The notes: generated by a model from the letters alone, not told the origin. Shown: positions 21,721-55,131, counted from the first letter of the stretch. The stretch is 64,000 bases of DNA from an uncultured Hyphomicrobiales bacterium (GCA_964620125.1 CAZUGQ010000007.1:29795-93794); one strand, 5' to 3'. Numbers and translations: made by a program.

Positions 21721-21948
21721 AACAGCGATGGTCCCGTTGTTTGGGGAAGGGGTCTCCTCCAAACAGCGTGCCATTCATTAGTGAAGGGTCGCAATTTTAC
21801 GGAACAACTGCTGTAAGTCTATGTATACTATACAGCTACATTCCGATTATCCACACATAATCTTCATGTAATCCACATGATTGGTGACAATTGACAAGAG
21901 TTTTCCACACGCTGATGACAATTTTCCAATCTTCTCGACACCATAGAT

Positions 21949-29300: not shown

Positions 29301-29324
29301 CCAGCGCACGAAGACTTTGGCAAC
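26310..29324 (-). CDS. large secreted protein with an IgGFc-binding-like N-terminal domain and a T9SS C-terminal sorting domain
   Basis: Predicted signal peptide from a GTG start (MAKVFVRWIIGTVLVGCVQPVFGQD); the ORF track extends to 29465. N-terminal GRDFWFALMPNF... is paralogous to 42974..45346 and 49401..50768. The C-terminus ...DVRHMAQGTYLLIAVHDGGTETSSVVVR resembles a T9SS CTD. Confidence 0.65.
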   Translation of the reverse strand, partial: VAKVFVRWIIGTVLVGCVQPVFGQDVPDSKGRDFWFALMPNFHNQYDVLDENPALRLQHEVFIYIGAEQPTRGRIILKDAAGAVRVEPFQITDPTQMYEFHTYVKPYELVGWNRSGQIDFSTMQTEEIAENTIHVTADSDVTVYALNQGVLTSEAFLVLPTDALAEDYVVASYTSDIDGGLSVGLPLEGTSTPSQFCIVATEDNTTVTFRPTAATMKSEAGEAQTITLNQGQVYLVQIHPDIDRFADLTGTQVRASKPVAVFGGHQRAVLPIEDQSFLGSRDCLIEQMNPIRTWGKTAFIFPLALSSNELPGSDSRFRVIAAFDSTEVFVDGMPVANLNAGSFYEGLLVQAAEVRTTKPSMVAMLKKSGGAPGVGGARLGDPFMMLVPPAEQFMDSYRFVSIQAHEYSLSISGTVVQGERIYVEQFLNVVIPTASVSSLQLDGAPFPAVSAFPIGGTDYSYLQVNMTDGIHHITADTTFGIYVYGYGEANSYGYIGGMAFRPLDVLPPEISGSAACGVFRGVVSDSVLGDSRIRSARVLPGSEVNATVTLDTFSPPVSVVGFTATLNNPYMDGQFAVEATDNVRQVSSETYTIPGYTIGAVGRGSDLEPATISVVVPINRLRCDTVLIENYGQTAHAITALSTALGATITEPMLPRVVQPGETVAVVICSQIESIGVAEDTLYIGDTCVRRAAYRLLVDVRADTEPPYTVLSAAPCDSNHVLVVGDDRDLDYGILFTSVIDASLVNCTVEPVSQSVQVHRYTVVVQDPLHDAIYGIMAEDSAGNRREIYDTIPGFTLAIVDEQGWFSSVPLGSTPLGEVMCDSVWLSNYGYFDQTVSSVFVYRNLLFSVPAHQLPITIPPGGRVPLMVCYEPLVVNGQTDLDTLAFSNGCLAKLLEVASNAQAVTFQGLSRCDVPVFANTTSITNRLLTMPLPATDVLYIRTKTPTTALTLDVVDVQGALISRRTWRGGASSDFQLDVRHMAQGTYLLIAVHDGGTETSSVVVR

Positions 29325-29491
29325 GGAACGTTGCGCTCTCTGGATCTCTGGTGAATCTATTGGCACCCTGTACTCCGCAGCGACGTTGATCGTGATGGAG
29401 ATTGCCAGACCGACGATGGTGAAAAGAGTTTCAATTAGTTCATCGGCATATTGTAATGTACGCAACCTAACACCAACAATCCCCCAGCTTC

Positions 29492-36190: not shown

Positions 36191-37525
36191 CTAGATCAGT
36201 CCGCGCGTTTTGAGTTCCAGATATCGATCAATTGAAGCGATGCTGAGTTGTGTTGGGGCTGCAAGTACACAGTGTATGCCACGGTGCCGAAGTTCCATGG
36301 CAATGTCACGCTTTTGCTGAAGAAAGTCGCGAGCTACTGTTCTCTTATAGACGTCTTCGATCGTTGCAGCACGAGAGGCTGCAAGTGCTCGAACTTCGAC
36401 ATTCTCGAAAATGACTACAACAAGAACATGCCGTGTTGCAATGAGCTGGAAGTATGGCAGCCTGCGGTGCAATGCACTCATCGAGTCTATGTTGGTAAAC
36501 AACATCACCAATGACCGATGGCGCAGTGAAGTTCGAATGCGCAGCACCAGATGCTCATCATTGGTTTCTTCAAAGTCTGTCTGCAATGCATACAACGTTT
36601 CATTTATCTGAACGATCTGTTCAGGCTTGCTTCCCGGGGTAACCATCGAACTACCATGAGCACCATAGGTTATCAACCCTGCTCTGTCGTGCTTCTTGAT
36701 AACCACGTTGCTAAAGGCCAGTGCTGCGTTTATAGCATAGTCCAACGACGTCATCCCGTCAAACGGTGCTCGCATGATACGGCCGGTATCAAGCACCGCT
36801 ACAACGTCCTGCGACCGTTCATCCTGATACTGGTTTACCATCAGGTTCCCACTGCGTGCTGTGGCTTTCCAGTTTAAGGACCGTACGTCGTCACCACTTA
36901 CATAGTTCTTGATCTTCTCGAAATCCATGGTGTGACCGAGTCTGCGCAAACGTCGCTGACCATGTTTGACGAGACGGTTGGAGAAGGCATGGAGTTCAGC
37001 TTTTCTCATCACGGTAACCGAAGGATACACCTTGCATTCGTGATCGGCATCCCACCGAAACCGTCGCTCGACCAAACCCAAAGGTCCTTTAACGAACACG
37101 TTTACCGCGCCGAAGGAGTATACACCACGTTCGACCGGCCGAACCGAGTATGATACATCGCGCTCCTGTCCACCATCTAGCCGAACGTGGAGATGAAAGT
37201 CGCGCTCCTGAAACTGAATCGGAAGCTCATCAACAACCGATGCAGTAATCGTTGAGGGATAAAGGCTTTTGAGGCGTATGCGCACAATATTTGGTTCACC
37301 ATTATTCAACCGTTCTTCCAATCTTCTTCTTGCGTGAACCATTCGCCCCTTACTCCAGAGCCACGTGGTGTCAATAAGGATGGCGATGGTAAACAGAACG
37401 AGGGCTGCGAGCGTAACTGGATACAACACATTCACCCACACGGACAGTACTGCCGGAACGCTAAGTCCGAACAGTATGATGTACGCACGTGGTGTTAGAA
37501 ACCAGCCTTTCCAAAAGGAAATCAT
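36191..37525 (-). CDS. DUF58 domain protein (vWA-like, partner of MoxR)
   Basis: N-terminal TM segments. DFEKIKNYVSGDDVRSLNWKATARSGNLMVNQYQDERSQDVVAVLD is the canonical DUF58 core. There is a 4-nt overlap with moxR. Confidence 0.85.
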   Translation of the reverse strand: MISFWKGWFLTPRAYIILFGLSVPAVLSVWVNVLYPVTLAALVLFTIAILIDTTWLWSKGRMVHARRRLEERLNNGEPNIVRIRLKSLYPSTITASVVDELPIQFQERDFHLHVRLDGGQERDVSYSVRPVERGVYSFGAVNVFVKGPLGLVERRFRWDADHECKVYPSVTVMRKAELHAFSNRLVKHGQRRLRRLGHTMDFEKIKNYVSGDDVRSLNWKATARSGNLMVNQYQDERSQDVVAVLDTGRIMRAPFDGMTSLDYAINAALAFSNVVIKKHDRAGLITYGAHGSSMVTPGSKPEQIVQINETLYALQTDFEETNDEHLVLRIRTSLRHRSLVMLFTNIDSMSALHRRLPYFQLIATRHVLVVVIFENVEVRALAASRAATIEDVYKRTVARDFLQQKRDIAMELRHRGIHCVLAAPTQLSIASIDRYLELKTRGLI

Positions 37526-38457
37526 CGAGGAACGTCCAGTGAGCGAAGTATGTCGCCGATAACGAGATCAGATGAAAATCCTTCGAGCTCACGTTCAGGC
37601 GCAACTTGCACTCGATGCCGGAGTACGGGCTTGGCAACTGCTTGCACATCGTCGGGCAGCACAAAGGTTCTCCCTTCCAGAGCTGCTCGAGCCTTTGCCG
37701 ACATCAACATGCCAATGCTTGCTCGGGGGGAGGCCCCAAGATCGAGGGATGGTGTGTTGCGTGTTGCTTGGGTTATCGAAGCCACATACCCGATGATGCT
37801 GTCTTCAACTACAACATTCTTCACACTCTGCCGAAGTGCTGCTAACTGATCAAGGCCGAGGATTGGACTGATGCTGTTTACGTCAGGCGCCGTACCTACA
37901 ATGTGATGGCGACGCAGGATCTCCACTTCTTCATTAACATCCGGATACGTTACAACAACCTTCATGAGGAATCGATCAAGCTGTGCCTCGGGTAAGCGAT
38001 ACGTTCCTTCCTGTTCTATCGGATTCTGGGTTGCAATCACCATGAAAGGAGATGGCAGAAGATGGGTTGCGCCGTCAACACTAATCTGTCGCTCTTCCAT
38101 TGCCTCGAAAAGTGCGCTCTGCGTTTTAGCCGGCGCCCTGTTGATCTCGTCTGCAAGAACAAGGTTTGCGAATACCGGTCCTTTGCGAAAGTGAAATTCC
38201 AGCGTTCGCGGGTCGAATACGCTTGTGCCAATGATGTCGGCTGGCATAAGGTCTGGTGTAAACTGGATTCGCGTGAACGTGCAATCAAGGAGTCTTGCTG
38301 TTAACCGCGCTGCAAGTGTCTTTGCAACACCCGGAACACCTTCTAGCAAGACGTGACCGTTGGAGAGCATGGCAATGAGCAGGTGATCAATCAGATCGGA
38401 CTGACCAACGATGATCCGGCTTACCTGCTCACGAAACGTGGTGATAGTGTCTTGCAT
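37522..38457 (-). CDS. MoxR-family AAA+ ATPase
   Basis: IVGQSDLIDHLLIAMLSNGHVLLEGVPGVAKTLAARLTARLL is the Walker A region. LADEINRAPAKTQSALFEAMEE is the Walker B/sensor region. Length about 311 aa. Confidence 0.92.
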   Translation of the reverse strand: MQDTITTFREQVSRIIVGQSDLIDHLLIAMLSNGHVLLEGVPGVAKTLAARLTARLLDCTFTRIQFTPDLMPADIIGTSVFDPRTLEFHFRKGPVFANLVLADEINRAPAKTQSALFEAMEERQISVDGATHLLPSPFMVIATQNPIEQEGTYRLPEAQLDRFLMKVVVTYPDVNEEVEILRRHHIVGTAPDVNSISPILGLDQLAALRQSVKNVVVEDSIIGYVASITQATRNTPSLDLGASPRASIGMLMSAKARAALEGRTFVLPDDVQAVAKPVLRHRVQVAPERELEGFSSDLVIGDILRSLDVPR

Positions 38458-38474: not shown

Positions 38475-39683
38475 TCAGATTGACGTTGCAGAGAAGAATG
38501 TGTGGATGTCGGCGTGTGCTGACTTAAGCTCGGCGTCTGATACCTTGTTGTGTACTGATCTCTGAGCCAGCGTAACCAGCCGCAGAACAACGTCGGGTGC
38601 AACACCGGAGGAAGCACTCACCATTTTGGCAATGTGGTTAGGATCACCGTCTACTGGGAGCCTGAGCTTTCTTGTTACATGTTTTCTAAACTGTGCTGCG
38701 ATTCGGCTCAGGATAGCCGCATGATCCTTTCGCAGCCAATACAACGATGTGATGCTGTCGAGGAAGTCGAGGGTTGTGTTCACAATCGGAGGCTTGCTCG
38801 GGATGGCACGCTGCCTCCTCTTCCCAGCAACAATGAGGTACATGCCCAAGCCCCCTAACAGAATCAAGTATGCAAGCATAAGGCCTTTGTGAGACTTCAG
38901 GTAGCTGAGTGGTGCTAGTTGCTCAGATGCTTGCATTGGTTTGTAATGTTCATCCCAGTAGACGACACCCTCTGGCATATAGCTCAGCACTGCCATCGAG
39001 CTGTGCCAAAGTTCATCGTACAACAATCCATAGTTGGTGAACAACTGCGGGGCCGAGCATAGTAGGAGCTGTCCTTTGCCGTAGGTCTTGCGAGCTGCAA
39101 CAGTGCTACCTTCAGGATAGACCTTATTGATGATAGCACGCCATCCTGCTTCCAGAGGTTGATACTCGTAACTTCGCCCAACGCTGTCGTACGTCGTCAC
39201 CCGTTTCTCTGAGAACGTGTATCGGAATCCTGGTGCACTGGAGTGTTCGGTAAGAATGCGGCTGGGGTATCGTGCGTCAAACAGAGGAAAGGCACCTGTG
39301 TAGATGTAAGAGTCGTCAATCTCACACGCGTCCAATATGGTGTCTGCAAACGTGATTGCGCTTAGGATAATCGTACTTCCGCGATCGAGAAGTGTGAACA
39401 TCGCATCAAGGCTAGCGTCGTCAAGCTCTAGATGGTCCGTGGCAAGCAAGAGGATCACTGGACCCGTGGTCTTCCGGCTCAACTGGTCCAGTGTACCCGT
39501 AGATACGGTAACAGTACGATTGTGCTGATACCGAAGCCATTCAACAACTGCCTTGGATCCGTAAGGTGCCTTGCTTGTTGACCTGAAATCTGGATAAAAC
39601 TTATCTGCATCCTGCAACTGTACTCGCATGAGTATTAGAAACACGATAAGCAAAACGGCCAATATCCAACCGATCCTGTTCAT
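38475..39683 (-). CDS. DUF4350 domain protein
   Basis: N-terminal TM segment (MNRIGWILAVLLIVFLIL), then a periplasmic domain. Assigned by its position in the conserved DUF4129/DUF4350/MoxR/DUF58 cluster. Confidence 0.55.
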   Translation of the reverse strand: MNRIGWILAVLLIVFLILMRVQLQDADKFYPDFRSTSKAPYGSKAVVEWLRYQHNRTVTVSTGTLDQLSRKTTGPVILLLATDHLELDDASLDAMFTLLDRGSTIILSAITFADTILDACEIDDSYIYTGAFPLFDARYPSRILTEHSSAPGFRYTFSEKRVTTYDSVGRSYEYQPLEAGWRAIINKVYPEGSTVAARKTYGKGQLLLCSAPQLFTNYGLLYDELWHSSMAVLSYMPEGVVYWDEHYKPMQASEQLAPLSYLKSHKGLMLAYLILLGGLGMYLIVAGKRRQRAIPSKPPIVNTTLDFLDSITSLYWLRKDHAAILSRIAAQFRKHVTRKLRLPVDGDPNHIAKMVSASSGVAPDVVLRLVTLAQRSVHNKVSDAELKSAHADIHTFFSATSI

Positions 39684-40309
39684 ACATGGTGCCGAATAGT
39701 GGCACGAACGGCATCGAAGGCTTGCTGTGCACGGTGAAAGTCGGCCATGCTTACCTGTTCCAGTCCATACCACGCTGACTGGAACATTCGGACTGCCTGC
39801 CGATAGGAATCGCCGAAAGCAGTTCCAGCGAGATCTCGAACGTATTCTGCATCGGTTCTTTCCGGTCGGAAGTTGATCATCCCAAGGTCCTTGAGCTCTG
39901 AGAGCGTTCGACGATATAGAAGTCGAATTGCAAGCCTGTAGTTGCCATCATTCACGGCAACCCCGATCAGTCGATCGAGGTCCTCTGGTGCTTCAAGTTG
40001 TTCTTCCTGCACAAGGGCAAGCCTAGAACCTGATGATGCAAACAGTCCCTGTTTTCGGGACTTCATGATAAAGAGAATCACGAGTGTGAGAACGCCAACG
40101 ACGATGATGAAGCCCACCAGATCGGGGAGTCCATTGAAATCGCCATCGAAGAGTTCGGCAATCCAATGCTGCAACCAATCGAACAGTTTGTCCATCGCGC
40201 TCTCACCACCCTTTTTAAGGATGTATTTGTACGAAGGGTCATCAAGCATGGCATCTTGCCACGCTCGCTGTACGATTGGATCAGCAGCAATGATTGTATC
40301 AGGCTTCAT
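39680..40309 (-). CDS. DUF4129 domain protein
   Basis: TM segment followed by ...YRRTLSELKDLGMINFRPERTDAEYVRDL...FQSAWYG..., which is typical of DUF4129. ATGA overlap with the downstream gene. Confidence 0.6.
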   Translation of the reverse strand: MKPDTIIAADPIVQRAWQDAMLDDPSYKYILKKGGESAMDKLFDWLQHWIAELFDGDFNGLPDLVGFIIVVGVLTLVILFIMKSRKQGLFASSGSRLALVQEEQLEAPEDLDRLIGVAVNDGNYRLAIRLLYRRTLSELKDLGMINFRPERTDAEYVRDLAGTAFGDSYRQAVRMFQSAWYGLEQVSMADFHRAQQAFDAVRATIRHHV

Positions 40310-40317
40310 GGCATGGT

Positions 40318-41214
40318 TCAGGCAGGATGAGAACCAGGATCGATCAGAGCTAGTCTGCGACCAAGCTCGACACCTTCAATACGTTCGCTATGCTGATAGT
40401 AGAGCACGGCATGGGATATGTAGGTTATGAAGCTTGCGAATACCAAAAGTATGGGGATGGCAATCGCAGCCACACCGGCAAGTATTGGCACAACCGGACC
40501 AAGCTCAGTAGTTGGAAGGATTGAGAGAGTACCAATGGACAGAATAGTTCCTGGTATCATCAGCGACAGCAGTAGTGCTGCCTGCGCCAGCCCAACAACC
40601 AGAATGATGCCAAACGAGTACCACCAACGATCCTTAATCAGAACAAAGACGCGCGATAGCGCTTTGCCTACATCGGCATCTTCTGCAACGACGGTAAATG
40701 CCAGCAACCCGAGCGGCACGGAAAGGTATATACCAGGTAGATAGAAGAACTGTGTTGCAATGTTGATCATGATGGCTGATGCGGCGGCGGCAAAGAATGT
40801 TCGCCAGAAATACTTACCAATCGCTGAGCGGAGCCATTCATAATCAGGATAAGAGCCTTGTTCTGCATAGTGTTTTACCGCAAGGTAAACGATGCACATC
40901 TGCAAGGCAGAGCCAGCTGATAGTGCTATCAATGCTAAGAGCAGACCTATGATAATGCCAGGCAGCGAGGATAGAAATGTGTCCGAATACATAGGCGACC
41001 ACTCATTATTCCCACCATATTGGTCGGCTATCATGCCAAAGAATTCGGAAAACAAGAAGGCCGTTGCAACCGCGCCGATGATAAGCCAGGGAGCACAAAT
41101 GCGAACGGTTGCACGCATCATTGGCTTGAAACCGCTTCTCGCAACCTCGAATATTACTGTGATCGTGTCAGAAAATGACCGAACCTCTCTAAGCCGATAC
41201 TCTTCGATCGCCAT
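40318..41214 (-). CDS. hypothetical polytopic membrane protein in the MoxR cluster
   Basis: About 6-7 TM helices and no soluble domain. Probable start is MAIEEYRL. Confidence 0.5.
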   Translation of the reverse strand: MAIEEYRLREVRSFSDTITVIFEVARSGFKPMMRATVRICAPWLIIGAVATAFLFSEFFGMIADQYGGNNEWSPMYSDTFLSSLPGIIIGLLLALIALSAGSALQMCIVYLAVKHYAEQGSYPDYEWLRSAIGKYFWRTFFAAAASAIMINIATQFFYLPGIYLSVPLGLLAFTVVAEDADVGKALSRVFVLIKDRWWYSFGIILVVGLAQAALLLSLMIPGTILSIGTLSILPTTELGPVVPILAGVAAIAIPILLVFASFITYISHAVLYYQHSERIEGVELGRRLALIDPGSHPA

Positions 41215-42181
41215 TGACAGACCTATTGATGATTGTTCGAGGAAGAACGACAACGTACCAGATAACCAATGCTGCTGAGCCCACGATGATACCAGCATTG
41301 AGCAAGGGTGATAAACCGTAGAGACGAGTAACGAAGCTCTCGAGAACAGCGGCAAGGAACAACAGCGGAACCATACCCAACGCTACGAGCGTTGCCGTTC
41401 GGATGCCACGAATGAAGGCTTCTCTGCGTGGATAGGTGCCCGGATGAAGAACGGCATGAGTAACTCTGATGGCTGCCGCTCCTCCAACAACGATAGAGGA
41501 AAGTTCGAGCGTGCCATGGATCCATATTCCCAGTGTAGCCGTTGCCAACTGATTGTACTGGGCAAAGAGACCATGGAAACAACCAACCATCACGGCATTC
41601 GGGATAAGAAGGTATGCCGCACCAACCACTGGTATCAAGCCGAGACCAACAGATCGAAGAAGGATCATGATATTGTTCAATGCAATGTAGAACAACATCT
41701 CCACGGGATCGGTCCTGCCATACACAGCCAGGGTTTCACCAGACTTGATGTTGGCAATGGTCATGTCTACGTAGAAGTCACCGAGTATGCTTCGAGCCAG
41801 ATCCTCGTTCTGACTGCCAGCAACGAAACCAAGGGTGCATCCAAGTACAAAAACGACTGTAGAGATCAGCAGGTGAGGCCGCACCTCGTACATAGCCTTG
41901 GGAACTTCGTAAAAGCATACCTGCCGCAAGCGGTGCTGCCGCAGCCTTTGGTTCCGGGAGATGGCCTCGTGCACCTTTCTGGACATTGCATTTAAGTACA
42001 ACAACGTTTGTGAACCGGGGAACTGTGCACGGGCAAAGGCAAGGTCGTCCATAAGCTGTACATAGGCTCCGGCCATCTCTTGAGCGTTGCATGCATCCGG
42101 CTTGTTTACAATCTCCTCGAATGCCTTCCATCGCTCTTGATTTTTTCTAATGAACGTCACTTCTCGCATTATTGCTCCCAA
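41189..42181 (-). CDS. SpoIIM-like (stage II sporulation protein M family) membrane protein
   Basis: N-terminal cytoplasmic helix-rich region, then about 5 TM helices. Assigned by its synteny with the RDD, DUF4129, DUF4350, MoxR and DUF58 genes. Confidence 0.5.
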   Translation of the reverse strand: MGAIMREVTFIRKNQERWKAFEEIVNKPDACNAQEMAGAYVQLMDDLAFARAQFPGSQTLLYLNAMSRKVHEAISRNQRLRQHRLRQVCFYEVPKAMYEVRPHLLISTVVFVLGCTLGFVAGSQNEDLARSILGDFYVDMTIANIKSGETLAVYGRTDPVEMLFYIALNNIMILLRSVGLGLIPVVGAAYLLIPNAVMVGCFHGLFAQYNQLATATLGIWIHGTLELSSIVVGGAAAIRVTHAVLHPGTYPRREAFIRGIRTATLVALGMVPLLFLAAVLESFVTRLYGLSPLLNAGIIVGSAALVIWYVVVLPRTIINRSVNGDRRVSA

Positions 42182-42236
42182 GGCAAATGTACTCTGTGAC
42201 TCTCACGCTAACTTGGTACAATCTTTGGAATACAAC

Positions 42237-42962
42237 ATGTCAACTCTCGGTATCACCACAACGCAGAATGTTGTTATCGAAGTCGAATCGGCTTCAGTTC
42301 TTCACCGTGCTGGCGCGTGGGCAGTCGATGGGTTTATCCTAATTGTCGGATTGATTTTCTTGTCCTTCGTTGTTTATGCTACCAACAACGTTGTGTCCGA
42401 CGATTTCTATCCCTGGGCCTTCTATCTCCTCCTGTGGATTTTTTATCCCTTGCTCTTTGAATCGATGATGGAGGGACAAACACCCGGAAAACGCCTCATG
42501 GGAATTAAGGTGACGATGCTTGATGGATCCAGGCCAACCTTTGGGGCATACTTCATGCGGTGGCTGATTGGACTGTTCGAGATTGGCTTCACGACGGGTG
42601 CTCTTGCCTTCCTTGTTGTGCTGTTCAGTAAGTACAGTCAGCGATTGGGCGACATGGCCGCGGGAACAACGGTAGTGCGAGTAAAACCTGCCGTTTCATT
42701 GTCAACGCTCATGATGGAAGTGGATGTGGACCGTACCAAAGCCCCCTATCCAGAAGCCATGAATCTCACTGACACGGAGGTGCAGGTTTTACGAGATGTT
42801 CTACTGGCACGGCAGCGAGGGATGTCGTCGCAACGAGCTATGGAACTGTTGTACGATGCGGTAGGCATCGTGGAACGTAAGCTCGGAGTGAAGAACTCGA
42901 CCCTACCGGAGAGCTTTCTGGCCGAAGTGATACGTTCTTACGGCATCATGCACGCGCGGTAA
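42237..42962 (+). CDS. RDD-family membrane protein
   Basis: HRAGAWAVDGFILIVGLIFLSF...GQTPGKRLMGIKV...RLGDMAAGTTVV is the RDD motif pattern. Transcribed divergently from the SpoIIM-like gene. Confidence 0.75.
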   Translation: MSTLGITTTQNVVIEVESASVLHRAGAWAVDGFILIVGLIFLSFVVYATNNVVSDDFYPWAFYLLLWIFYPLLFESMMEGQTPGKRLMGIKVTMLDGSRPTFGAYFMRWLIGLFEIGFTTGALAFLVVLFSKYSQRLGDMAAGTTVVRVKPAVSLSTLMMEVDVDRTKAPYPEAMNLTDTEVQVLRDVLLARQRGMSSQRAMELLYDAVGIVERKLGVKNSTLPESFLAEVIRSYGIMHAR

Positions 42963-42973
42963 CCTGCACTTGG

Positions 42974-45346
42974 CTACAAGCGGTACAATAAGCCAAGGTT
43001 GATACCGAATGACTGGAGAGTCCAGTTTACGTCACTAGCCATGGATCCGAATCTCTTTGTGTAGAGAGTCTCCATAAATGCCGATGCTCGGAACGAGATT
43101 GGATAGCTGAATCCAATTCCACCGAGCAGTTCGAACCCAAGAGTGCTTAGGGTAGTGACTGATTGACTACCAACCGGTTGAGAGGTTCCGCCTCCAGGCA
43201 ATTCCCATCCTGTTGGTCGCAGTACTTCGCGTTGTGTTTCAGCAGAATTGCCCAGCGCTACCGCGATGTTAAGACCACCTGTGATGTAGAAGAAACGCTG
43301 CAAAAACCACTGCGCCATACCCCCAAAACGAAGGTATGAGTTTGTGAGAGCAACGGTTGTTGCTTCTTGATAGGGAATGAACTGGCCGCTGGTTAAATCG
43401 AACACCGTCCCGATTGTGGTGTCCGGTGAGATCAACTTTCCGCCAACGCCAGCAACGGACAGGCGTGCCTGTAGGATTACGCTAGGAAGCACGCGCCTAC
43501 CTAACAGTAGGCCGAAGCCCCATCCCGGTCCTTCACTCTCGCCAAATTCGGCTTGACCTGATAGGTCGCCAATGGAGGTAAAGTCTGCTGTATGAACGTA
43601 GTTGGCAAGCGACCCATACGCACCAACGATCCACGTTTCTTCGCCTACGCATTGCACCAAGGGATCATCACTGAGAGAGAACACGTACCGTTCTATCCGG
43701 CTATCAAACACGTAGCATACAGCAAACTGTGATCGGTTTCCCGCCACGTCCAGTGCTTCAAGTACAAGGCGTCCGCTCTTACCGGACACTGCTGGTCGTA
43801 CACGAATGGAAACTTGTGGGGCACCTTGTTCGACCTTTGGGATGTCGGCTTCGAGTGAAACGGTGTTTACGATGTTCACTGCGGCAAGGCCACGATCCAT
43901 AACCCGGTCATCACGCAGCGTCACAACAAAATCGTCTCGTACGTTAGCGGCTTCAGCCATCGGTGGCACTGTATCGACCAATTTGTTCAGTTCCAGAAAA
44001 CTCTGGCCAGCCATGTTGCCATAGGCATCGTAGGCGTCACTCTTGAAGCCAAAGCCATACGAATACAAGCCAAACGGGACTTCGGATCGGATAACGTGGG
44101 TACCGTACGGTATCGGAACCTGAGCAATGGAATATCGGCTTTCACCCAGGACGGTAAAGAGTGTGGAGTCAACTCGACGGCCATTTAACCGAATCTGCCC
44201 AATGCTTTCTGTTGGAGCAACAACGTTGATGTAATGGTGCCAGTCTCCACTTATTGGCGTTGCAAATCGATACTCATTCAGAAACTGCTGAGTAGGACTT
44301 ACAAGAATCATCATTGGATCGCCTACACTATCGCCATTCTTAAAGCCTTGTGCAAACTGCGCCACAAGAACTGGCTTGTCGGCCGTGATCTGAACATGCT
44401 GCTGCGTGTTCAGACTCTCGTAGAATTCACCAGCGTTGAGAACAACGGCAAGTCGACTATTCTCAAACACTCGAGTATTGTTTTCTGAGGCAACAACGCG
44501 AAACGTATAACGTGAACGTTCCTTGAGCATGCCAACATAGTAATGCAATCCCCACGCCGAAACGGGAGGCAATTGTTCAATAAGGTGATTGCACGCCTCT
44601 ACTTTCGGTGGCACGTAGGCACAATTATGTCCGCTAAACACCGATATTTTTTTGTTGGCCACGATGCGAGTTCCTGTAAGGTCGCATTGCCCGATACTTT
44701 CCCATCTGGCTCCAATGCTGTAAACATCACCTTGGCGCAAACGAATCTTGAATGGCTTTCCCGCAGGGCGTCCTGTTGACGTTGTAGCTGTTGGTGTGAT
44801 TTCGACTTCCGTGTCGTTTTCCGTTGCAACAATTGATAGAGCAGAAAGCAGATCGCTGGCCAACTTGGTATACCCAATAGCTCGATACTCGCGGCCGATA
44901 ACAGAGATTGGAAGCCCTACGAAGGCGTCGGTGGTTTGGTATCGACTATTCAGTCCGTACACAGAAATCGCGGTATCGGCTGTAATGTGAACAGCCAGTC
45001 GTTCTGCTGTTTCCAAGGCACGGAGTTGGGCTCGTGCTGGAATCTGAACCGGTACAACGCTGTTTGCCCGCACTTCGATGGTGGACTTATAGCCAATCTC
45101 TTCAATTTCGATTTCTACTTTAGCATCGAAGCTACTTGTAATGAACAGTTGCAAACGCAGAGCTGCACCACGATTCTGAACGTCGGTTCCGGCTGATCGG
45201 AAGTTCTTCATGAAGCATAGCCAGAACTCCTTACCCTCAGAATTTTTGGTGATGTATTCTGGATCACGAGCACTTGTTAGGGATGTGAGGCTCACCATCA
45301 GCAGCAGACTCAACGGTACGAATGCCATGCGGGTGATCATGTTCAC
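42974..45346 (-). CDS. IgGFc-binding-like N-terminal domain protein with a C-terminal beta-barrel-like outer-membrane region
   Basis: Signal peptide. KEFWLCFMKNF and CAYVPPKVEACNHLIEQLPPVSAWG are paralogous to 26310..29324 and 49401..50714. The C-terminal about 250 aa are Gly- and aromatic-rich with alternating hydrophobic residues, ending ...FGINLGLLYRL. Confidence 0.6.
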   Translation of the reverse strand: MNMITRMAFVPLSLLLMVSLTSLTSARDPEYITKNSEGKEFWLCFMKNFRSAGTDVQNRGAALRLQLFITSSFDAKVEIEIEEIGYKSTIEVRANSVVPVQIPARAQLRALETAERLAVHITADTAISVYGLNSRYQTTDAFVGLPISVIGREYRAIGYTKLASDLLSALSIVATENDTEVEITPTATTSTGRPAGKPFKIRLRQGDVYSIGARWESIGQCDLTGTRIVANKKISVFSGHNCAYVPPKVEACNHLIEQLPPVSAWGLHYYVGMLKERSRYTFRVVASENNTRVFENSRLAVVLNAGEFYESLNTQQHVQITADKPVLVAQFAQGFKNGDSVGDPMMILVSPTQQFLNEYRFATPISGDWHHYINVVAPTESIGQIRLNGRRVDSTLFTVLGESRYSIAQVPIPYGTHVIRSEVPFGLYSYGFGFKSDAYDAYGNMAGQSFLELNKLVDTVPPMAEAANVRDDFVVTLRDDRVMDRGLAAVNIVNTVSLEADIPKVEQGAPQVSIRVRPAVSGKSGRLVLEALDVAGNRSQFAVCYVFDSRIERYVFSLSDDPLVQCVGEETWIVGAYGSLANYVHTADFTSIGDLSGQAEFGESEGPGWGFGLLLGRRVLPSVILQARLSVAGVGGKLISPDTTIGTVFDLTSGQFIPYQEATTVALTNSYLRFGGMAQWFLQRFFYITGGLNIAVALGNSAETQREVLRPTGWELPGGGTSQPVGSQSVTTLSTLGFELLGGIGFSYPISFRASAFMETLYTKRFGSMASDVNWTLQSFGINLGLLYRL

Positions 45347-46104
45347 TTAAGCACCATGAAAGGATGCAGGTAGGTGCCTGTTGACGTTTGCAGGGACATG
45401 AGGTAAGAACCCTGAGCCAATTCCCAGGAATTGGCTGCAAAGTCGTAGCTGTTTTCACCGGCACGACCCTGCATTTGTCCTAAATCCAGAATCGTGCGTC
45501 CCTGCATGGTACAAACGGAGAGGTGCACAGGCTGAGCCGACTCCAACATAAAAACGAACGTGCTCTGACTTGAAAACGGATTGGGATAGTTGCCCGTAAA
45601 CCCCTCTGCGGGTGTTGGTATCGCAGGGCTTCCGTCGGCGGTAATGAGACCACTTTGGAATTCGACTGTAGGAACAGGAGTCTTCTCTCTGTCCATCCTG
45701 ATTGGCTGCAAATAGCCGCTGGTGCCCGGTCCATTCAGAAACTCCATCACAAGCATACACACCAATCCATTGGTTGTTGGCTGCACATCCCAACACTCTA
45801 CCGTTAGGCGGCCTCTGGTGCCATCAACAATTGTGTCGGCTCCCACATAAGCCTGAGGACATCGGAATGATGCGTTTGGTCCACCGGTACACCGAACGAA
45901 ACGAATCACATTGGCCGGGTAATCGAACACAAGACGAAGGTGTCCCAGACTGGAGATTGTGCCGGTAACAGGAATCTCCACTATTGACTGCCGTGCGCCC
46001 GACGTAGAGCTTGGCACACTGATCCGCTCCTGAGAATGCGCGGGGTGAACCGCCAGAAGCAGTGAGAGGAGAAGCAGACGTAGGTACGTGGTAACGAGCT
46101 GCAT
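45343..46104 (-). CDS. small secreted protein with a T9SS C-terminal sorting domain
   Basis: Signal peptide. The C-terminus NYPNPFSSQSTFVFMLESAQPVHLSVCTMQGRTILDLGQ...GSYLMSLQTSTGTYLHPFMVLK is a classic Por_Secre_tail. ATGA overlap with the downstream gene. Confidence 0.7.
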   Translation of the reverse strand: MQLVTTYLRLLLLSLLLAVHPAHSQERISVPSSTSGARQSIVEIPVTGTISSLGHLRLVFDYPANVIRFVRCTGGPNASFRCPQAYVGADTIVDGTRGRLTVECWDVQPTTNGLVCMLVMEFLNGPGTSGYLQPIRMDREKTPVPTVEFQSGLITADGSPAIPTPAEGFTGNYPNPFSSQSTFVFMLESAQPVHLSVCTMQGRTILDLGQMQGRAGENSYDFAANSWELAQGSYLMSLQTSTGTYLHPFMVLK

Positions 46105-46133
46105 GAATCCTTCGAAGATACGGCGGTAGCCAA

Positions 46134-48128
46134 CTAGAACTCTTGGAGTGAAATCACCTCGTATCCGCTCTCTTTGCGTCCAACAACGATGAGTGAATAG
46201 CTATTACCAAGAGGTCCCAGCACGATGGGAAGTGTGTAAACAAGCTTGCGCTGAGTTGCATCGTACACATACATAGATCCTCTGCGGTCACGTTGAAGCA
46301 CGTGTATGGGAGATGCCGTCGCAAAGGCTACGTCGCGTGCGACTACTTCCGAGCTGTCGGGATGTTGTGCATACACAGTATCATACGTCACAGAAACCAG
46401 CGGGAGGTCGAATGTGGCATTAATCACACGTCTATCACTCTGGCCAGGTATCTGGCGAAGAGGGTCGGAGGTAATGTTTACGATTATTTCTTGCGAACCT
46501 TGTTGCGTATAGATCAGCAAGGTTCGCTGACCTTGCAGCGATGCCGCCTGAATGGTAGCACCTGCCGCACTTACCACTGCTGATCCATAGGCAACGCTTG
46601 TGGTTAGAGAATTGCGGTAGAATACGTTACCATTTTCGACCACGGATGCAATCGTTGTATTAACAAAATCTGATGTTGGCGAGCCATTCACGAAGCGGAA
46701 CAGAGCAGCATCCGTCTGTTGTTGGATCGTTCCTGGCTGATCGCGTTCTGCGAGAAGATAGGTGACGGGCAAACCGTCTGGTGTTTCGCCTACAACGAGT
46801 AAGTACGCTTGATCGGGCTGAACCGTACCAACCGAAGCATGGAGGAGAGCCGTCGGGAGTACGGACGTTGTAACCGTGAGGGGCAAGGCGCCTGGCTCGA
46901 TCACTGTCGGATTGCTGATACTGCCATAGGTGAGATCTGCTGCTAACGTTGTACCCGAGCTAACAGATGTAGCACTCGAGGCATCGGTTCGAGCACCGGC
47001 GCTAATCGTTATCTGCCTATTGCGAGGTGCAGCATGAACAGTGCGGATAATTGCCTTTCCGGCAGTGTTGAATAGCACTGGAAGTGGTGGTACGATGATC
47101 ATTGCTTTTGTGTCGCTGCTAGTTGCAATCACTGTATACAAACCTCTCAGTGTGAGCGACGTGCTGTCAGTCGCCGTTCGGCCATCCTGAAACCGAAGCT
47201 CCACGACGTCGGCTTCTTCTTGTTCACACGTAGGAACCGAAGCATAGGCTGAGAGTACGAAAGGTTCGACGTTCGAGGCAACCACCTGCCCAGTTCGCGT
47301 CAAACTCAGTGTTACTGGTGAACCACTCAGGTTGCAAACACGCATGTTTGCATCACGCATGTTCACTGGAAGAAAAGGTCGGTCCGCTGCATTGGTAAAA
47401 TCCGACTCATTCAATAGCATGAATTCAACGTTAGAGTTCCCAGTTGTTCGATGGGCAATAATCGTGTAGGGCGTGTACTGGTCTAGCGTGCACTCAAAGG
47501 TGCCAATTGGAATGGTTTCTCCAAATTGAATCTGCTGAATGCTGAACACCGCAGTACCAGGATTCACTTCTTGGTAGAGTGAAACGCTGCGGTATGATAG
47601 CGGTGTTGCTGTCAGTGGTTTACCATTAGGACACCCTAGGCGTACCTCGAACTGCACCGTTGTATCGGGGAACATGTTTGCCACGCGAACCTGTGCAACG
47701 GGTAGGGTTGTGAGCGAGCGGTTCGCGTTGATAACAACGATCGTATCAAACCTATCCTGGTTGTTTGGTAGCCCGGTGGTAAAAACATCATACACACTTT
47801 GTTGTGCGAATCGTACTCGGTCCGGAGTTGAAAACTCCGTGACTCCACCTGCCAAGATTTGCACGTAACTAGAATCAGCCGGTGCATTCACCGTAGCACT
47901 CATTCTACTAGCGGGCACTACTTCAGTCTGGTAACCAAGTTCCAGGACCATGCGCCTATCGGTGCCATCAGGTACCAAGTTGAGCATTCTAACAACGATT
48001 CTGGCCGAACCCGGTGGTGGATTCACGATGTTAGGATCCTCACTTGCACAGCCGCCAGCCAAGCAGATCATGACAGCAAGAGCGGTTGAAAGTGGGCTTC
48101 GGTACAAGTGTTGCGATTGAGTAGTCAT
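46134..48128 (-). CDS. large hypothetical lipoprotein, first gene of a three-gene surface-protein operon
   Basis: Lipobox LAGGCAS. 664 aa, beta-rich, Thr/Ser/Val-rich. The start codon lies 5 bp from the tandem repeat array. Confidence 0.55.
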   Translation of the reverse strand: MTTQSQHLYRSPLSTALAVMICLAGGCASEDPNIVNPPPGSARIVVRMLNLVPDGTDRRMVLELGYQTEVVPASRMSATVNAPADSSYVQILAGGVTEFSTPDRVRFAQQSVYDVFTTGLPNNQDRFDTIVVINANRSLTTLPVAQVRVANMFPDTTVQFEVRLGCPNGKPLTATPLSYRSVSLYQEVNPGTAVFSIQQIQFGETIPIGTFECTLDQYTPYTIIAHRTTGNSNVEFMLLNESDFTNAADRPFLPVNMRDANMRVCNLSGSPVTLSLTRTGQVVASNVEPFVLSAYASVPTCEQEEADVVELRFQDGRTATDSTSLTLRGLYTVIATSSDTKAMIIVPPLPVLFNTAGKAIIRTVHAAPRNRQITISAGARTDASSATSVSSGTTLAADLTYGSISNPTVIEPGALPLTVTTSVLPTALLHASVGTVQPDQAYLLVVGETPDGLPVTYLLAERDQPGTIQQQTDAALFRFVNGSPTSDFVNTTIASVVENGNVFYRNSLTTSVAYGSAVVSAAGATIQAASLQGQRTLLIYTQQGSQEIIVNITSDPLRQIPGQSDRRVINATFDLPLVSVTYDTVYAQHPDSSEVVARDVAFATASPIHVLQRDRRGSMYVYDATQRKLVYTLPIVLGPLGNSYSLIVVGRKESGYEVISLQEF

Positions 48129-48133
48129 GGTTT

Positions 48134-48283
48134 GCTATGAACCCGGCACCTATGAACCCGGCACCTATGTTCCCGGCACCTATGTTCCCGGCACCTAAGA
48201 ACCCGGCACCTATGTTCCCGGCACCTATGTTCCCGGCACCTATGTACCCGGCACCTATGTTCCCGGTACATTCGTCCCCGGCA
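48134..48283. repeat. tandem array of about ten 15-bp repeats (consensus CTATGTTCCCGGCAC; minus-strand reading GTGCCGGGAACATAG)
   Basis: Read directly: nine near-perfect units plus one degenerate unit, with variants AA/TT/TA at two positions. It occupies the divergent intergenic region between the lipoprotein operon (-) and prfA (+). Confidence 0.9.
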
Positions 48284-48361
48284 ACGTATGGCAAGTTGCG
48301 ATATTTTTGCCCTTTCATCCCTGCCCAAGCCCCCTTAACCTTTAATGTTGCACACGTTAAC

Positions 48362-49411
48362 GTGGAAGAACGCCTTCAACACCTGCTTGATGAGTTTGCT
48401 GCTGCAGAGCAGGCCTTGAATGATCCCGATGTTGTTACTGATCAACAAAAACTGCGTGATGCATCACGTTTGTACAAGGCTCTGCTACCAGTTGCCGAGG
48501 CCGCTCGTGCATACCTGAAGCTCAACGAACGTTTGCAGGAAGCTCGGGCAATGGCTAATGATCCTGCGCTGGATCGAGAGTTGAGAGACCTTGCATACGA
48601 AGAACTTCATGCCCTTGAAGATCAAAAAGCTGCAGCCGAGGCCGAACTTCTCGTCCTGTTGGTTCCCAAAGATCCAAATGACCTGAAAGATTGCATCGTT
48701 GAAGTTCGAGCGGGTACGGGTGGTGATGAAGCTGCGTTGTTTGCGGGTGACCTGTATCGTATGTACGTACGATTCGCTGAACGGCAAGGATGGGCGGTGG
48801 ATGTAATAGACTTCACGGAAGGTGAGCGCGGTGGCTATAAAGAAATCATCTTCGCCCTAAGTGGAAACGAAGCCTATGGTATGATGAAGTATGAAAGCGG
48901 TGTTCATCGTGTGCAACGAGTACCTGAAACAGAAGCTCAAGGCCGTATCCACACAAGTGCTGCTACAGTAGCCGTGCTGCCAGAGGCAGAAGAAGTCGAC
49001 GTGCAGATAAACGAGAGTGATTTGCGAATCGACATCTTCAGGTCAGGTGGCAAGGGAGGCCAGAATGTGAACAAGGTAGAAACCGCCGTTCGCATTGTTC
49101 ATAACCCATCGGGCATTGTTGTGCAATGCCAGGACGAGAGATCGCAACTCAAGAATAAAGAGAAGGCCATGAAGGTGTTGCGCGCCCGCCTGTACGAAAT
49201 GGAATTGGAAAAGCAACAGTCAGCTGTTGCAGGTTCCCGCAAAGAAATGGTGAGAAGCGGCGACCGTTCCGAGAAGATTCGCACCTATAACTTTCCGCAG
49301 AACCGCGTTACAGACCACCGGCTTGAAGGGGAACACAAGAATCACCAGTTGGATCAAGTCATCAACGGAGACTTAGCTGATTTGATAGCTGCCCTGCGCG
49401 CTACCAACTAG
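48362..49411 (+). CDS. prfA: peptide chain release factor 1
   Basis: PKDPNDLKDCIVEVRAGTGGDEAALFAGDL...RVQRVPETEAQGRIHTSAATVAV...SGGKGGQNVNKVETAVRIVH carries the GGQ motif and the PxT-equivalent (PET). The start is set at the GTG giving MEERLQHLL. The ORF track extends it to 48137 through the repeat array. Confidence 0.88.
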   Translation: MEERLQHLLDEFAAAEQALNDPDVVTDQQKLRDASRLYKALLPVAEAARAYLKLNERLQEARAMANDPALDRELRDLAYEELHALEDQKAAAEAELLVLLVPKDPNDLKDCIVEVRAGTGGDEAALFAGDLYRMYVRFAERQGWAVDVIDFTEGERGGYKEIIFALSGNEAYGMMKYESGVHRVQRVPETEAQGRIHTSAATVAVLPEAEEVDVQINESDLRIDIFRSGGKGGQNVNKVETAVRIVHNPSGIVVQCQDERSQLKNKEKAMKVLRARLYEMELEKQQSAVAGSRKEMVRSGDRSEKIRTYNFPQNRVTDHRLEGEHKNHQLDQVINGDLADLIAALRATN

Positions 49412-50714
49412 CTACATGGCCATACGCGTCGTACGACCCATCTAGATTACCGGATTGGGCAGTTGCCAAAACCAACATGTTATAACCACTGGATATCGTT
49501 GCCTCGGCTCCCGTCATCGGTACATTCAATTGAACAAGATCCGTTCCAATGTTCACCACTGCCGGATCTTCAATGAACGAGCCGTTTACCGTGAGCGACG
49601 GAAGCGCCTCCGGCCGAGTAACGATAACAAGCGTCGGCGTCCACGGACGGGCTACAGATACATTTACAATGGCCGATCTGGTCCAACGGTTTACCGGTGG
49701 AACAAGTATCATACAGGGATCTCCAGCCAGGTTACCATCCTTTTCGGTTTCAGATTTGAAGCCCTCAGAGTACATGGCAACAAGAACTGGATTTGATGCA
49801 CGCAATCGTATTGGCACCGAGCTTGCAATTTCCTTGAACTCTCCCTGTCCAAGCACATGAACTTCGGTACTGTCGGCGTTAACAGTTACGTTCGTTTCCG
49901 GTCTTGTGCCGATGATTCGAATTCTCGTGCGAAGTCGGCCCGGGAAGGCAGGAATAACGTAGTCCGTTCCCAATCGTTCATACGGAGGTGTGTGCTCAAG
50001 CAAGTAGTTGCAGGCCTCTACCTTTTCCGGGATGTATGCACAACGATGACTTGACATGACGGAGATTTTCCTGTTCGCCAGCACATGAACACCTGTAAGG
50101 TCAAACGCGGGATCCTTAGCCGGCAGCCCTTCATTTGTATCCCGCGCAATTACCGCACACTGCCCTGCTTGCAACGCATACTCGCGAGTTTCACCGTCTC
50201 TAAACGTAACCTTGATCGAAGTGAAGTCTTCATACGCAGCAACAGTTGCTGTTGAAATGAGATCTTGTGCCATAGGAGAATAACTAGCTAGCCAGTAGTC
50301 ACGCCCGCACATTTCCGAAGGAAGCAGTGATGTCGATTCAGTGGTCTGGTACTTTGAATAGGTTATCGAAATCACAACCGGTGAGGTTGACCGAATGCGT
50401 ATCGTCTTGCTACCAATGCCAGTCCTGTTTGCAACAAGTGACTCAGGTATGTCAACATGCTGAGCTGTTCCGCGGTCAACGTGTACCGTAGTAGTCCAAC
50501 CAATTCCTTCGCTTGTTAACTCGACATCTGCGGCAGAAACAGCACTAATCGTGGCAACTAAATACTCTGGATGTTTTGAACCCCCATCCGATGTGCTGCG
50601 AAAGTTTTGAGGAATGGCAAAAAGAAAGTCCTTACCGGCAAGACCTTGGCCGGATGACAACACCGGTACCAGAAAAACACATACCACAGATATCAAACAT
50701 TTCACGGCCGACAT
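49401..50714 (-). CDS. IgGFc-binding-like N-terminal domain protein (short paralogue, no anchoring module)
   Basis: Signal peptide MSAVKCLISVVCVFLVPVLSSGQG. GKDFLFAIPQNF and CAYIPEKVEACNYLLEHTPPYERLG are paralogous to the 42974 and 26310 genes. It ends at ...GSYDAYGHVASW, where the paralogue continues. Confidence 0.55.
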   Translation of the reverse strand: MSAVKCLISVVCVFLVPVLSSGQGLAGKDFLFAIPQNFRSTSDGGSKHPEYLVATISAVSAADVELTSEGIGWTTTVHVDRGTAQHVDIPESLVANRTGIGSKTIRIRSTSPVVISITYSKYQTTESTSLLPSEMCGRDYWLASYSPMAQDLISTATVAAYEDFTSIKVTFRDGETREYALQAGQCAVIARDTNEGLPAKDPAFDLTGVHVLANRKISVMSSHRCAYIPEKVEACNYLLEHTPPYERLGTDYVIPAFPGRLRTRIRIIGTRPETNVTVNADSTEVHVLGQGEFKEIASSVPIRLRASNPVLVAMYSEGFKSETEKDGNLAGDPCMILVPPVNRWTRSAIVNVSVARPWTPTLVIVTRPEALPSLTVNGSFIEDPAVVNIGTDLVQLNVPMTGAEATISSGYNMLVLATAQSGNLDGSYDAYGHVASW

Positions 50715-50810
50715 ACTTCCTCCTACGGAGTTATACCAATGTAGACAAACCATCTCACCGTTGTTCACTATGTGTGTTGCAACACGAATATTTCCCCGTT
50801 ATCTTCGCGT

Positions 50811-54753: not shown

Positions 54754-55131
54754 ATGACCTATCGTATTCTTCTCATCGTTAGTGGCCTTACGATGATGTT
54801 TGCCGTCTATGGCCTGGTGATGACGATCGGTGCACTCGTTGATGAAAGTGATGCATGGATCGGAAATCTTACCCTTGGCGGCACCTTCACAGTGATTTCG
54901 GCTTCCTGCGTGACCATCGGAATGATGATGCGAAAGAAAGTACAGAAACGCCTGGATCAGGAGATTGACCGCGAATTCTTGGATCTCGGATATGTAGAGG
55001 CCTCCTTGTTTGCCAAGGAGGCCGGTGTGAGTCTTGATGATGCTCGGGACCAACTCGATAGGCGTATGCGCGACCTTGGATGGAAGCGCACAGAGTTGGA
55101 AAGCTACAATGCCAGGTATTATCGCTTGTGA
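54754..55131 (+). CDS. small hypothetical membrane protein
   Basis: Two predicted TM helices, then a charged C-terminal tail. 125 aa. Confidence 0.4.

Follow-up and report, generated by a model that had tools for sequence, protein, structure and literature searches.

Organization of the locus

A 64,000-nucleotide stretch of DNA from an uncultured Hyphomicrobiales bacterium (GCA_964620125.1 CAZUGQ010000007.1:29795-93794; referred to throughout as the window) contains three co-directional genes on the minus strand, and these genes and their surroundings are analysed here. Gene 1 (46134..48128) encodes a lipoprotein of 664 amino acids (aa), gene 2 (45343..46104) encodes a 253-aa secreted protein with a type IX secretion system (T9SS) C-terminal domain (CTD), and gene 3 (42974..45346) encodes a 790-aa protein in which a PF17517 (IgGFc_binding) domain is joined to an outer-membrane beta-barrel. 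The positions and lengths of the three open reading frames (ORFs), and their recognition as a lipoprotein, a T9SS cargo and a PF17517-barrel fusion, agree with an earlier reading of the window made from the sequence alone (the original prediction). The host genome is of the Kapabacteria type, and Kapaibacterium is placed in Bacteroidota in the NCBI taxonomy.

Gene 2 starts 29 nucleotides (nt) after the stop codon of gene 1, no terminator-like site intervenes, and the tight spacing of the three co-directional genes makes their co-transcription plausible. Genes 2 and 3 meet at the junction aaGTGAacATG and not at the ATGA overlap originally described. Gene 3 starts either at the GTG at 45346, which overlaps the TGA stop of gene 2 (GTGA), or at the ATG at 45340, which lies 2 nt past the stop. 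The start called in the public record gives a protein of 788 aa, in agreement with the ATG option, and an exact-sequence look-up of the public protein that is 100% identical (P0001) returned no contig on record.

Domains and conservation of the PF17517 protein

Gene 3 encodes, in order, a signal peptide, a PF17517 domain, an immunoglobulin (Ig)-like domain and a C-terminal outer-membrane barrel. The Pfam hidden Markov model (HMM) of PF17517 matches residues 140-431 over its full length (model positions 1-297 of 297) with 259.5 bits against a cut-off of 25.6 (E = 5.1e-77), which bears out a family assignment first made without a database search, and the family is matched by 43 of 43 aligned homologues. 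Homologues of gene 3 (639 matches) are full-length at approximately 785 aa, and those that are named come from metagenome-assembled genomes of the Kapabacteria/Ignavibacteria type. A structure predicted with AlphaFold2 from the 43-sequence alignment (mean predicted local distance difference test (pLDDT) 84.7; predicted template modelling score (pTM) 0.66) is all-beta and is composed of an N-domain (approximately residues 33-445), an Ig-like beta-sandwich delimited by the secondary structure of the model (residues 463-559; 43670..43960, minus strand), a 12-residue linker containing the invariant Cys566, and the C-terminal beta-barrel (residues 572-790) whose existence had been proposed from the sequence. 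The PF17517 N-domain as a whole is assigned to residues 33-455 (43982..45250, minus strand) and is predicted from the barrel topology to be periplasmic, as set out below.

Structural comparison was informative for the barrel only. The profile of the 790-aa family gave no match among PDB sequences, and Foldseek searches with the full model against the PDB and the viral structures of BFVD returned barrel matches and nothing usable for PF17517. The label 'beta-helix' previously given to the N-domain was not confirmed, the model being all-beta and the domain having no PDB match. The literature on PF17517/IgGFc_binding holds no functional or structural work on the bacterial domain.

Mean pairwise identity among family members is 0.63-0.66 in the PF17517 domain, 0.43 in the Ig-like domain and 0.35 in the barrel, and falls to 0.24 in the cohesin-like module of the 253-aa partner. 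The PF17517 N-domains are 65-87% identical to that of the window protein, and release factor 1 (RF1, encoded by prfA) from the same loci is 66-78% identical. Invariant positions in the gene 3 family include the motifs H240-x-C242...C252-N and G-D343-P-M-M, the residue E257 and the cysteines C544 and C566. Compared at the level of sequence, a slowly evolving PF17517 domain with rapidly evolving partners suits a protected and constrained periplasmic module accompanied by exposed partners. PF17517 is a large and widespread family with no known bacterial function, and here it is as conserved as RF1 across a class-level lineage.

Barrel type and predicted topology

The barrel of gene 3 (residues 572-790; 42977..43633, minus strand) is of the OmpA/OmpX type according to the AlphaFold2 model, Foldseek and profile comparison, has approximately 10 strands and ends in ...G-L-L-Y-R-L. 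The DSSP string of the model contains 10 strand segments, of which the first four are approximately 20 residues each; short turns of 2-4 residues connect them on the C-terminal side, and the loops and hairpin tips on the opposite side are longer. The barrel matched OmpA in a Foldseek search of the PDB (9a2m, 9fzd and 1bxw; E = 1e-6 to 6e-5), followed by NspA, Ail, OmpX, OmpW and Pla, with a probability of 1.00 for OmpA, NspA, Ail and OmpX, whereas the autotransporter EspP gave a template modelling (TM) score of 0.27. C-terminal ends in the family (...YRL, ...YRW and ...WRF) are of the outer membrane protein (OMP) type, and among the 43 homologues PF13568 is matched in six, PF13505 in four and OmpA_membrane in one. 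The fold, the C-terminal signal and profile homology to OMP_b-brl_2 together identify the region as a small OMP barrel.

A profile of the barrel alone recovered 750 proteins from 1.84 billion representative sequences. PF17517 precedes a C-terminal copy of the barrel in all four of the longer proteins checked (P0166, P0176, P0181 and P0184), and the next-best group consists of the N-terminal barrels of PF13568-positive proteins of 650-730 aa that end in OmpA_C (E = 1e-21 to 1e-10); stand-alone barrels of approximately 260 aa were also recovered. Because the gene 3 barrel is homologous to barrels that continue into a periplasmic OmpA_C, it is an OmpA-type barrel, and its C-terminal end is likely to lie in the periplasm, as in these relatives. 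An even number of strands would then place the N-terminal end of the barrel in the periplasm as well, and with both ends periplasmic the 540 residues of the PF17517 and Ig-like region would also be periplasmic. By these topology rules and by homology, the large and conserved PF17517 domain probably faces the periplasm.

This topology bears on the cell-surface complex with an adhesin- or S-layer-like role that the original prediction had put forward. A complex of the cell envelope is still the most reasonable view of the three products, but a small OmpA-type barrel of approximately 10 strands would hold the PF17517 region in the periplasm and not on display. In the surface alternative, the PF17517 and Ig-like domains would be a passenger anchored by its own barrel in an adhesin- or S-layer-like coat with the two partner proteins, and export would be autotransporter-like or assisted by the T9SS or by the extracellular dome that the machinery for beta-barrel assembly (BAM) possesses in Bacteroidota. 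The order of signal peptide, passenger and C-terminal barrel is that of type V secretion, both partner proteins bear surface-targeting signals, and PF17517 paralogues with T9SS CTDs, one of which also bears a lectin domain, are clearly secreted. The barrel, however, matches the 8-10-stranded OmpA, OmpX and Ail and resembles EspP only weakly, no Autotransporter family is matched in Pfam at E<=1, and the stretch from residue 445 to residue 572 of the model contains no helix that could serve as the alpha-helical linker. The continuation of homologous barrels into OmpA_C also opposes display, as do paralogues of the same subfamily that lack both CTD and barrel and have no route out of the periplasm. 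The supposed passenger, moreover, is the slowest-evolving part of the protein, which would be unusual for an exposed adhesin. Display of the region as an adhesin passenger is an attractive reading but is probably wrong, and is considered unlikely.

Three other barrel classes were considered and rejected. A type Va autotransporter is contradicted by the absence of an Autotransporter match, by approximately 10 strands in place of 12 and by the missing helical linker. A PorP/SprF shuttle is not indicated by any family model, as neither Pfam nor NCBIfam gave a PorP/SprF match at E<=1 for the 790-aa protein or at E<=0.1 for the 43 homologues. A Hop-like split barrel would require the N-terminal strand EFWLCF to belong to the barrel, but barrel-less paralogues carry EFWLCF too, and the strand is therefore part of the N-domain.

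The cohesin-like T9SS cargo

Gene 2 (minus strand) encodes a signal peptide, a cohesin-like module and a T9SS type-A CTD. The N-terminus is hydrophobic and forms a helix at residues 2-17 of the AlphaFold2 model (pLDDT 86), as expected of a Sec signal; this helix is followed by a nine-strand beta-sandwich (residues 27-157; 45634..46026, minus strand) and the C-terminal sorting domain (residues 170-253; 45346..45597, minus strand). The CTD is assigned to type A by TIGR04183 (27.6 bits, cut-off 23), a model that also matches all but one of the 45 family members aligned from related loci, and its NYPNPF and GxY motifs and terminal lysine are conserved in the 45-member alignment; PF18962 in Pfam gave 22.9 bits, under its cut-off of 27. 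From this domain, the 253-aa protein is predicted to be secreted by the T9SS.

The sandwich resembles cohesins in both structure and sequence profile. Cohesins rank at the top of the Foldseek results for the 253-aa model (2w1n, E = 5e-9; 1aoh, TM 0.67; 6kgf, TM 0.64), and the family profile matches seven cohesins among PDB sequences at E = 0.002-0.03, in addition to the solved Por CTD 8glj_D. No match to Cohesin (PF00963) was found in the 253-aa protein in Pfam at E<=1, nor was a Dockerin match found at that threshold in four neighbouring proteins. As judged from the model and the profiles, the module is cohesin-like and not a cohesin.

Conservation of the gene pair

Gene context was surveyed in 83 related loci. 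Of the 75 loci with a homologue of the CTD protein (247-288 aa), 74 encode it immediately upstream of the PF17517 gene, and the two genes share a 4-nt start/stop overlap in 43 loci. A lipoprotein orthologue lies upstream of the pair in 35 of the 83 loci, all of them in the nearer subclade. On this comparison of loci the evolutionarily conserved unit is the pair of genes for the CTD protein and the PF17517 protein, and not the three-gene operon as initially conceived.

Six loci contain an additional PF17517-only gene, inserted between the two members of the pair, and the CTD gene is then coupled to this gene (by a 4-nt overlap in four). Because the CTD gene couples to the inserted PF17517-only gene and not to the barrel form, coupling follows PF17517 and not the barrel. 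This arrangement favours an alternative in which the cohesin-like protein pairs with PF17517 in the periplasm, PF17517 serving either as a dock or chaperone that keeps the small cargo near the outer membrane until T9SS export, or as a passenger of the small CTD protein, which would carry CTD-less PF17517 proteins out. Cohesin modules are protein-protein docking modules, which would fit either version. Nevertheless, no dockerin-like segment is present in the operon proteins (Pfam, E<=1), the evolutionary rates of the two supposed partners are very different, and the barrel-tethered form could not be transported outward. The carrier version is further weakened in that, to our knowledge, hitch-hiking on the T9SS has no established precedent. 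Periplasmic pairing is thus regarded as improbable.

In clades outside the nearer subclade, the gene upstream of the pair encodes SecA, an OmpA-like protein or a conserved protein of 420 aa. The last of these is a secreted protein of approximately 420 aa with 62-88% identity and no Pfam match that ends in ...NSPGYRLILNN[IV]LFPAAKKKKQKT; it is co-directional with and upstream of the pair in L048, L051, L054, L057, L059 and L064, and likewise in L068, L075, L078, L079, L081 and L083.

The DUF4397 lipoprotein

Gene 1 (minus strand) encodes approximately six tandem DUF4397-like repeats behind a lipoprotein signal. DUF4397 (PF14344) is matched in three stretches with 69.7 bits against a Pfam cut-off of 30.6, and self-comparison with hhalign reveals internal repeats at offsets of approximately 100-218 residues (probability 93-96%), from which a repeat unit of approximately 105 aa in about six copies was derived. 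The lipobox L-A-G-G-C27 is followed by A-S-E-D-P-N (48030..48062, minus strand). C27 closes the signal peptide, and when the N-termini of 34 orthologues are aligned, most of them have an equivalent cysteine with A-[SQE]-E-[DN] directly after it. In the export signal of Bacteroidota lipoproteins, one polar or basic residue precedes two or more acidic ones in the region from +2 to +6, and in the narrower form a polar residue and two acidic residues occupy positions +3 to +5 (PMC5080379, PMC12578637); C-A-S-E-D-P conforms to this pattern, and surface exposure of the lipoprotein is predicted from this motif. A sequence search of the PDB with the lipoprotein gave no match, and the literature on DUF4397 contains nothing on bacterial function. 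The orthologue of the lipoprotein is broken into two ORFs (248 and 379 aa) in L004 (5882..7872), which at 79% identity is the closest of the relatives with data; the break is due to a frameshift, to decay into a pseudogene or to faulty assembly.

The restricted distribution of the lipoprotein raises the possibility that it stands outside the system, with genes 2 and 3 functional alone and gene 1 a syntenic neighbour in one subclade. All loci with the lipoprotein belong to the nearer clade, in which the prfA, MarR and CAP genes are also syntenic with the pair, and other clades have different upstream genes, as described above. This view is countered by the short gap between the co-directional genes 1 and 2, where no terminator-like site is present, and by the conserved export-signal-like motif, which argues for the same membrane. 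It is also countered by L044, a locus of a distant clade in which a 346-aa protein of unrelated architecture, consisting of a DUF4397 tandem and a T9SS CTD, is encoded upstream of the pair; the upstream proteins of L045 and L047 are similar to it in both length and sequence. Since DUF4397 occurs both in the lipoprotein and in the form with a CTD, it has become associated with the pair on two occasions, in both of them together with a signal for the surface, and the CTD form would represent a second route to the surface for DUF4397. A narrow HMM of the DUF4397 repeat recovered orthologues only and missed the protein of the L044 type. Exclusion of the lipoprotein from the system is possible but somewhat doubtful.

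The 15-bp repeat and the prfA-side element

A 15-bp tandem repeat of 8.8 copies (48135..48266; Tandem Repeats Finder score 201-236) lies 7 nt upstream of the lipoprotein ATG. The gap between prfA and the lipoprotein gene is 233 bp here versus an estimated 0-96 bp in 34 relatives, and the repeat pattern has no match in the 83 related loci or in metagenome_contigs. The original prediction had the repeat-filled leader governing expression of the operon; given that the 83 related loci all lack the repeat, it is not a general regulator of the operon, although it may affect expression in this strain.

Beyond the array lies a conserved intergenic element, GGCAAGTTGCGATATTTTTGCCC (48290..48312, plus strand), which is kept in L004, L005, L006 and L023. 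The element shared by these four relatives reads TTGCGATATTTTTG on the prfA strand, and the prfA GTG start at 48362 aligns with GTG starts in the four relatives. The Bacteroidota -7 box has the consensus TAnnTTTG. By likeness to this consensus, TTGCGATATTTTTG resembles a Bacteroidota-type -7 box and may be part of a promoter, and a putative -7 box facing prfA is accordingly assigned to TATTTTTG (48302..48309, plus strand). The repeat array sits on the lipoprotein side of the element and is flanked by degenerate copies, and the distance from the element to the ATG is approximately 160 nt here versus about 25-42 nt in relatives. The repeat thus looks like a local, strain-specific amplification in the 5' region of gene 1 that lies outside the conserved system. 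A 424-aa ORF on the opposite strand (48137..49411, plus strand), in which the repeat would be translated as (NPAPM)n fused to RF1, is almost certainly an artefact of ORF calling, because the conserved GTG is the start of prfA and the promoter-like element is situated downstream of the repeat.

PF17517 paralogues and neighbouring genes

Two PF17517 paralogues are encoded in the window. The first, of 455 aa (49401..50768, minus strand; PF17517, E = 4e-40), has a Sec signal and PF17517 alone, with no CTD and no barrel. Its gene is situated between prfA and marR, and its 3' end overlaps the 3' end of prfA by 11 bp. In syntenic relatives prfA adjoins marR and this gene is missing between them; it is therefore an insertion specific to this genome. 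With the 15-bp repeat, genome-specific additions are present on both sides of prfA. The second paralogue, of 1051 aa (26310..29465, minus strand), combines PF17517 (E = 2e-64) with a T9SS CTD (Por_Secre_tail, 26.1 bits against a cut-off of 27). The loop H-x-C-A-Y-x-P-x5-C-N is common to the barrel and domain-only forms of PF17517, whereas the CTD-bearing forms, including the 1051-aa paralogue, are without both loop cysteines, and this difference marks the two as distinct subfamilies. As the CTD form occurs beside the barrel and domain-only forms, PF17517 is sent to at least two destinations within one genome.

Further PF17517 proteins of approximately 930-1016 aa are encoded within a few kb of the pair in two related loci (L078, 2563..5613; L083, 7452..10247), and the former combines PF17517 with an L-type lectin and a T9SS CTD. 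This fusion points to possible carbohydrate binding by the secreted forms of PF17517.

Weak Por_Secre_tail matches under the Pfam cut-off were found in two other proteins of the window (19171..21774, minus strand, 21.7 bits; 55119..57206, minus strand, 23.3 bits), the second of which also contains SBBP beta-propeller repeats. These products are likely to be further T9SS cargo, and the additional CTD-bearing ORFs suggest that the organism has a T9SS. A family-specific CTD HMM detected no other CTD in the window; this model was too narrow, as Pfam gave three weaker candidates.

On the other side of the operon, an RDD gene (42150..42962, plus strand) converges on gene 3 with an 11-nt gap and also adjoins in 8-9 relatives. 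It is followed by genes for a SpoIIM-like protein (41189..42181), an unannotated membrane protein (40318..41355) and a DUF4129 protein (39680..40309), all on the minus strand, and the ORFs beyond this cluster are probably MoxR-like (37522..38457) and DUF58-like (36191..37525).

Proposed arrangement

The combined observations are best explained by a barrel-centred envelope module with a surface face and a periplasmic face that is found lineage-wide in Kapabacteria-type Bacteroidota, an explanation held with middling confidence. Sec would export the product of gene 3 and BAM would insert it by way of its C-terminal OmpA-type barrel of approximately 10 strands, so that the PF17517 and Ig-like domains would be suspended on the periplasmic side of the outer membrane and only the long hairpins and loops of the barrel would reach the surface. 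Gene 2 would be made in a fixed ratio with gene 3 through translational coupling, and its cohesin-like module would cross the outer membrane by the T9SS by means of the type-A CTD. In the nearer subclade, the C-A-S-E-D motif of gene 1 would direct the DUF4397 lipoprotein to the cell surface. The three proteins would most likely assemble as a complex of barrel and surface proteins such as is typical of Bacteroidota, in which PF17517 would lie on the inside and the two binding modules, cohesin-like and DUF4397, on the outside.

The PF17517-only paralogues, which carry a Sec signal and nothing else, are consistent with this arrangement, while several observations weigh against it. The strand count and the side of the N-domain were taken from the DSSP string and homology and not from geometry, and the 790-aa protein itself matches no OMP family in Pfam at E<=1. 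A tight interface is awkward to reconcile with a fast-evolving cohesin-like module opposite a very conserved PF17517 domain. Both this genome and its relatives also encode PF17517 as T9SS cargo, in one case with a lectin fused to it, and the domain could have an extracellular use. Finally, the lipoprotein is missing from about half of the loci, and its adjacency in the nearer clade could be plain synteny with prfA, MarR and CAP.

The CTD gene and the PF17517-barrel gene constitute a conserved and uncharacterised pair of modest novelty, and not the surface adhesin first proposed; no paper in the literature covers this envelope complex. If the two proteins interact, they would provide a new way to tie a T9SS cargo to an anchor in the outer membrane, and a first clue to what PF17517 does. 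There is a slim chance that the pair represents a third arrangement for handling T9SS cargo beside PorV and PorP/SprF, in which a type-A cargo and a dedicated OmpA-type barrel, permanently partnered, would form a lineage-wide trans-outer-membrane device. The periplasmic PF17517 domain, conserved almost to the level of housekeeping proteins, would then connect the surface module to the cell interior in Kapabacteria.

Comparison with known systems

The name of PF17517 derives from the N-terminal domain of animal FCGBP, to which gene 3 is related by a strong HMM match over the full model of 297 positions. The context of gene 3, however, is bacterial and the domain is fused to a membrane barrel, so that no role related to IgG can be assumed. 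The module of gene 2 shares a nine-stranded jelly-roll fold (TM 0.6-0.67) and weak profile similarity with cellulosomal cohesins (1aoh, 6kgf and 2w1n), but it has no Pfam Cohesin match, is joined to a T9SS CTD in a diderm, and is accompanied by no detected dockerin in the operon.

SusCD-like complexes (PMC12578637) similarly involve a lipoprotein gene with an acidic export-signal-like motif adjoining a barrel gene. Here the barrel is not a TonB-dependent transporter and the lipoprotein is of DUF4397 and not SusD-like, and its association with the barrel is a predicted one. Type Va autotransporters have the same linear order of signal peptide, large beta-rich region and C-terminal barrel, but they possess 12 strands and a helical linker, unlike the linker-free OmpA-type barrel of gene 3 with its low similarity to EspP.

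A closer parallel in gene order is offered by T9SS cargo with a type-B CTD, which is anchored or targeted by a cognate PorP/SprF-like barrel (PMC9143113, PMC12618676). In both cases a T9SS cargo gene is followed by a gene for an outer-membrane barrel; in the present pair, however, the CTD is of type A (TIGR04183), which in the paradigm is assigned to PorV, and the barrel is of the OmpA type with no PorP/SprF match and an additional region of 540 residues. The OmpA family of Bacteroidota/Kapabacteria (OMP_b-brl_2 with OmpA_C) possesses a homologous barrel and likewise combines one barrel with one large periplasmic module. Gene 3 differs in that the soluble module precedes the barrel, reversing the order, and consists of PF17517 and an Ig-like domain in place of the peptidoglycan-binding OmpA_C, and in that gene 3 has a gene for T9SS cargo as its obligate partner.

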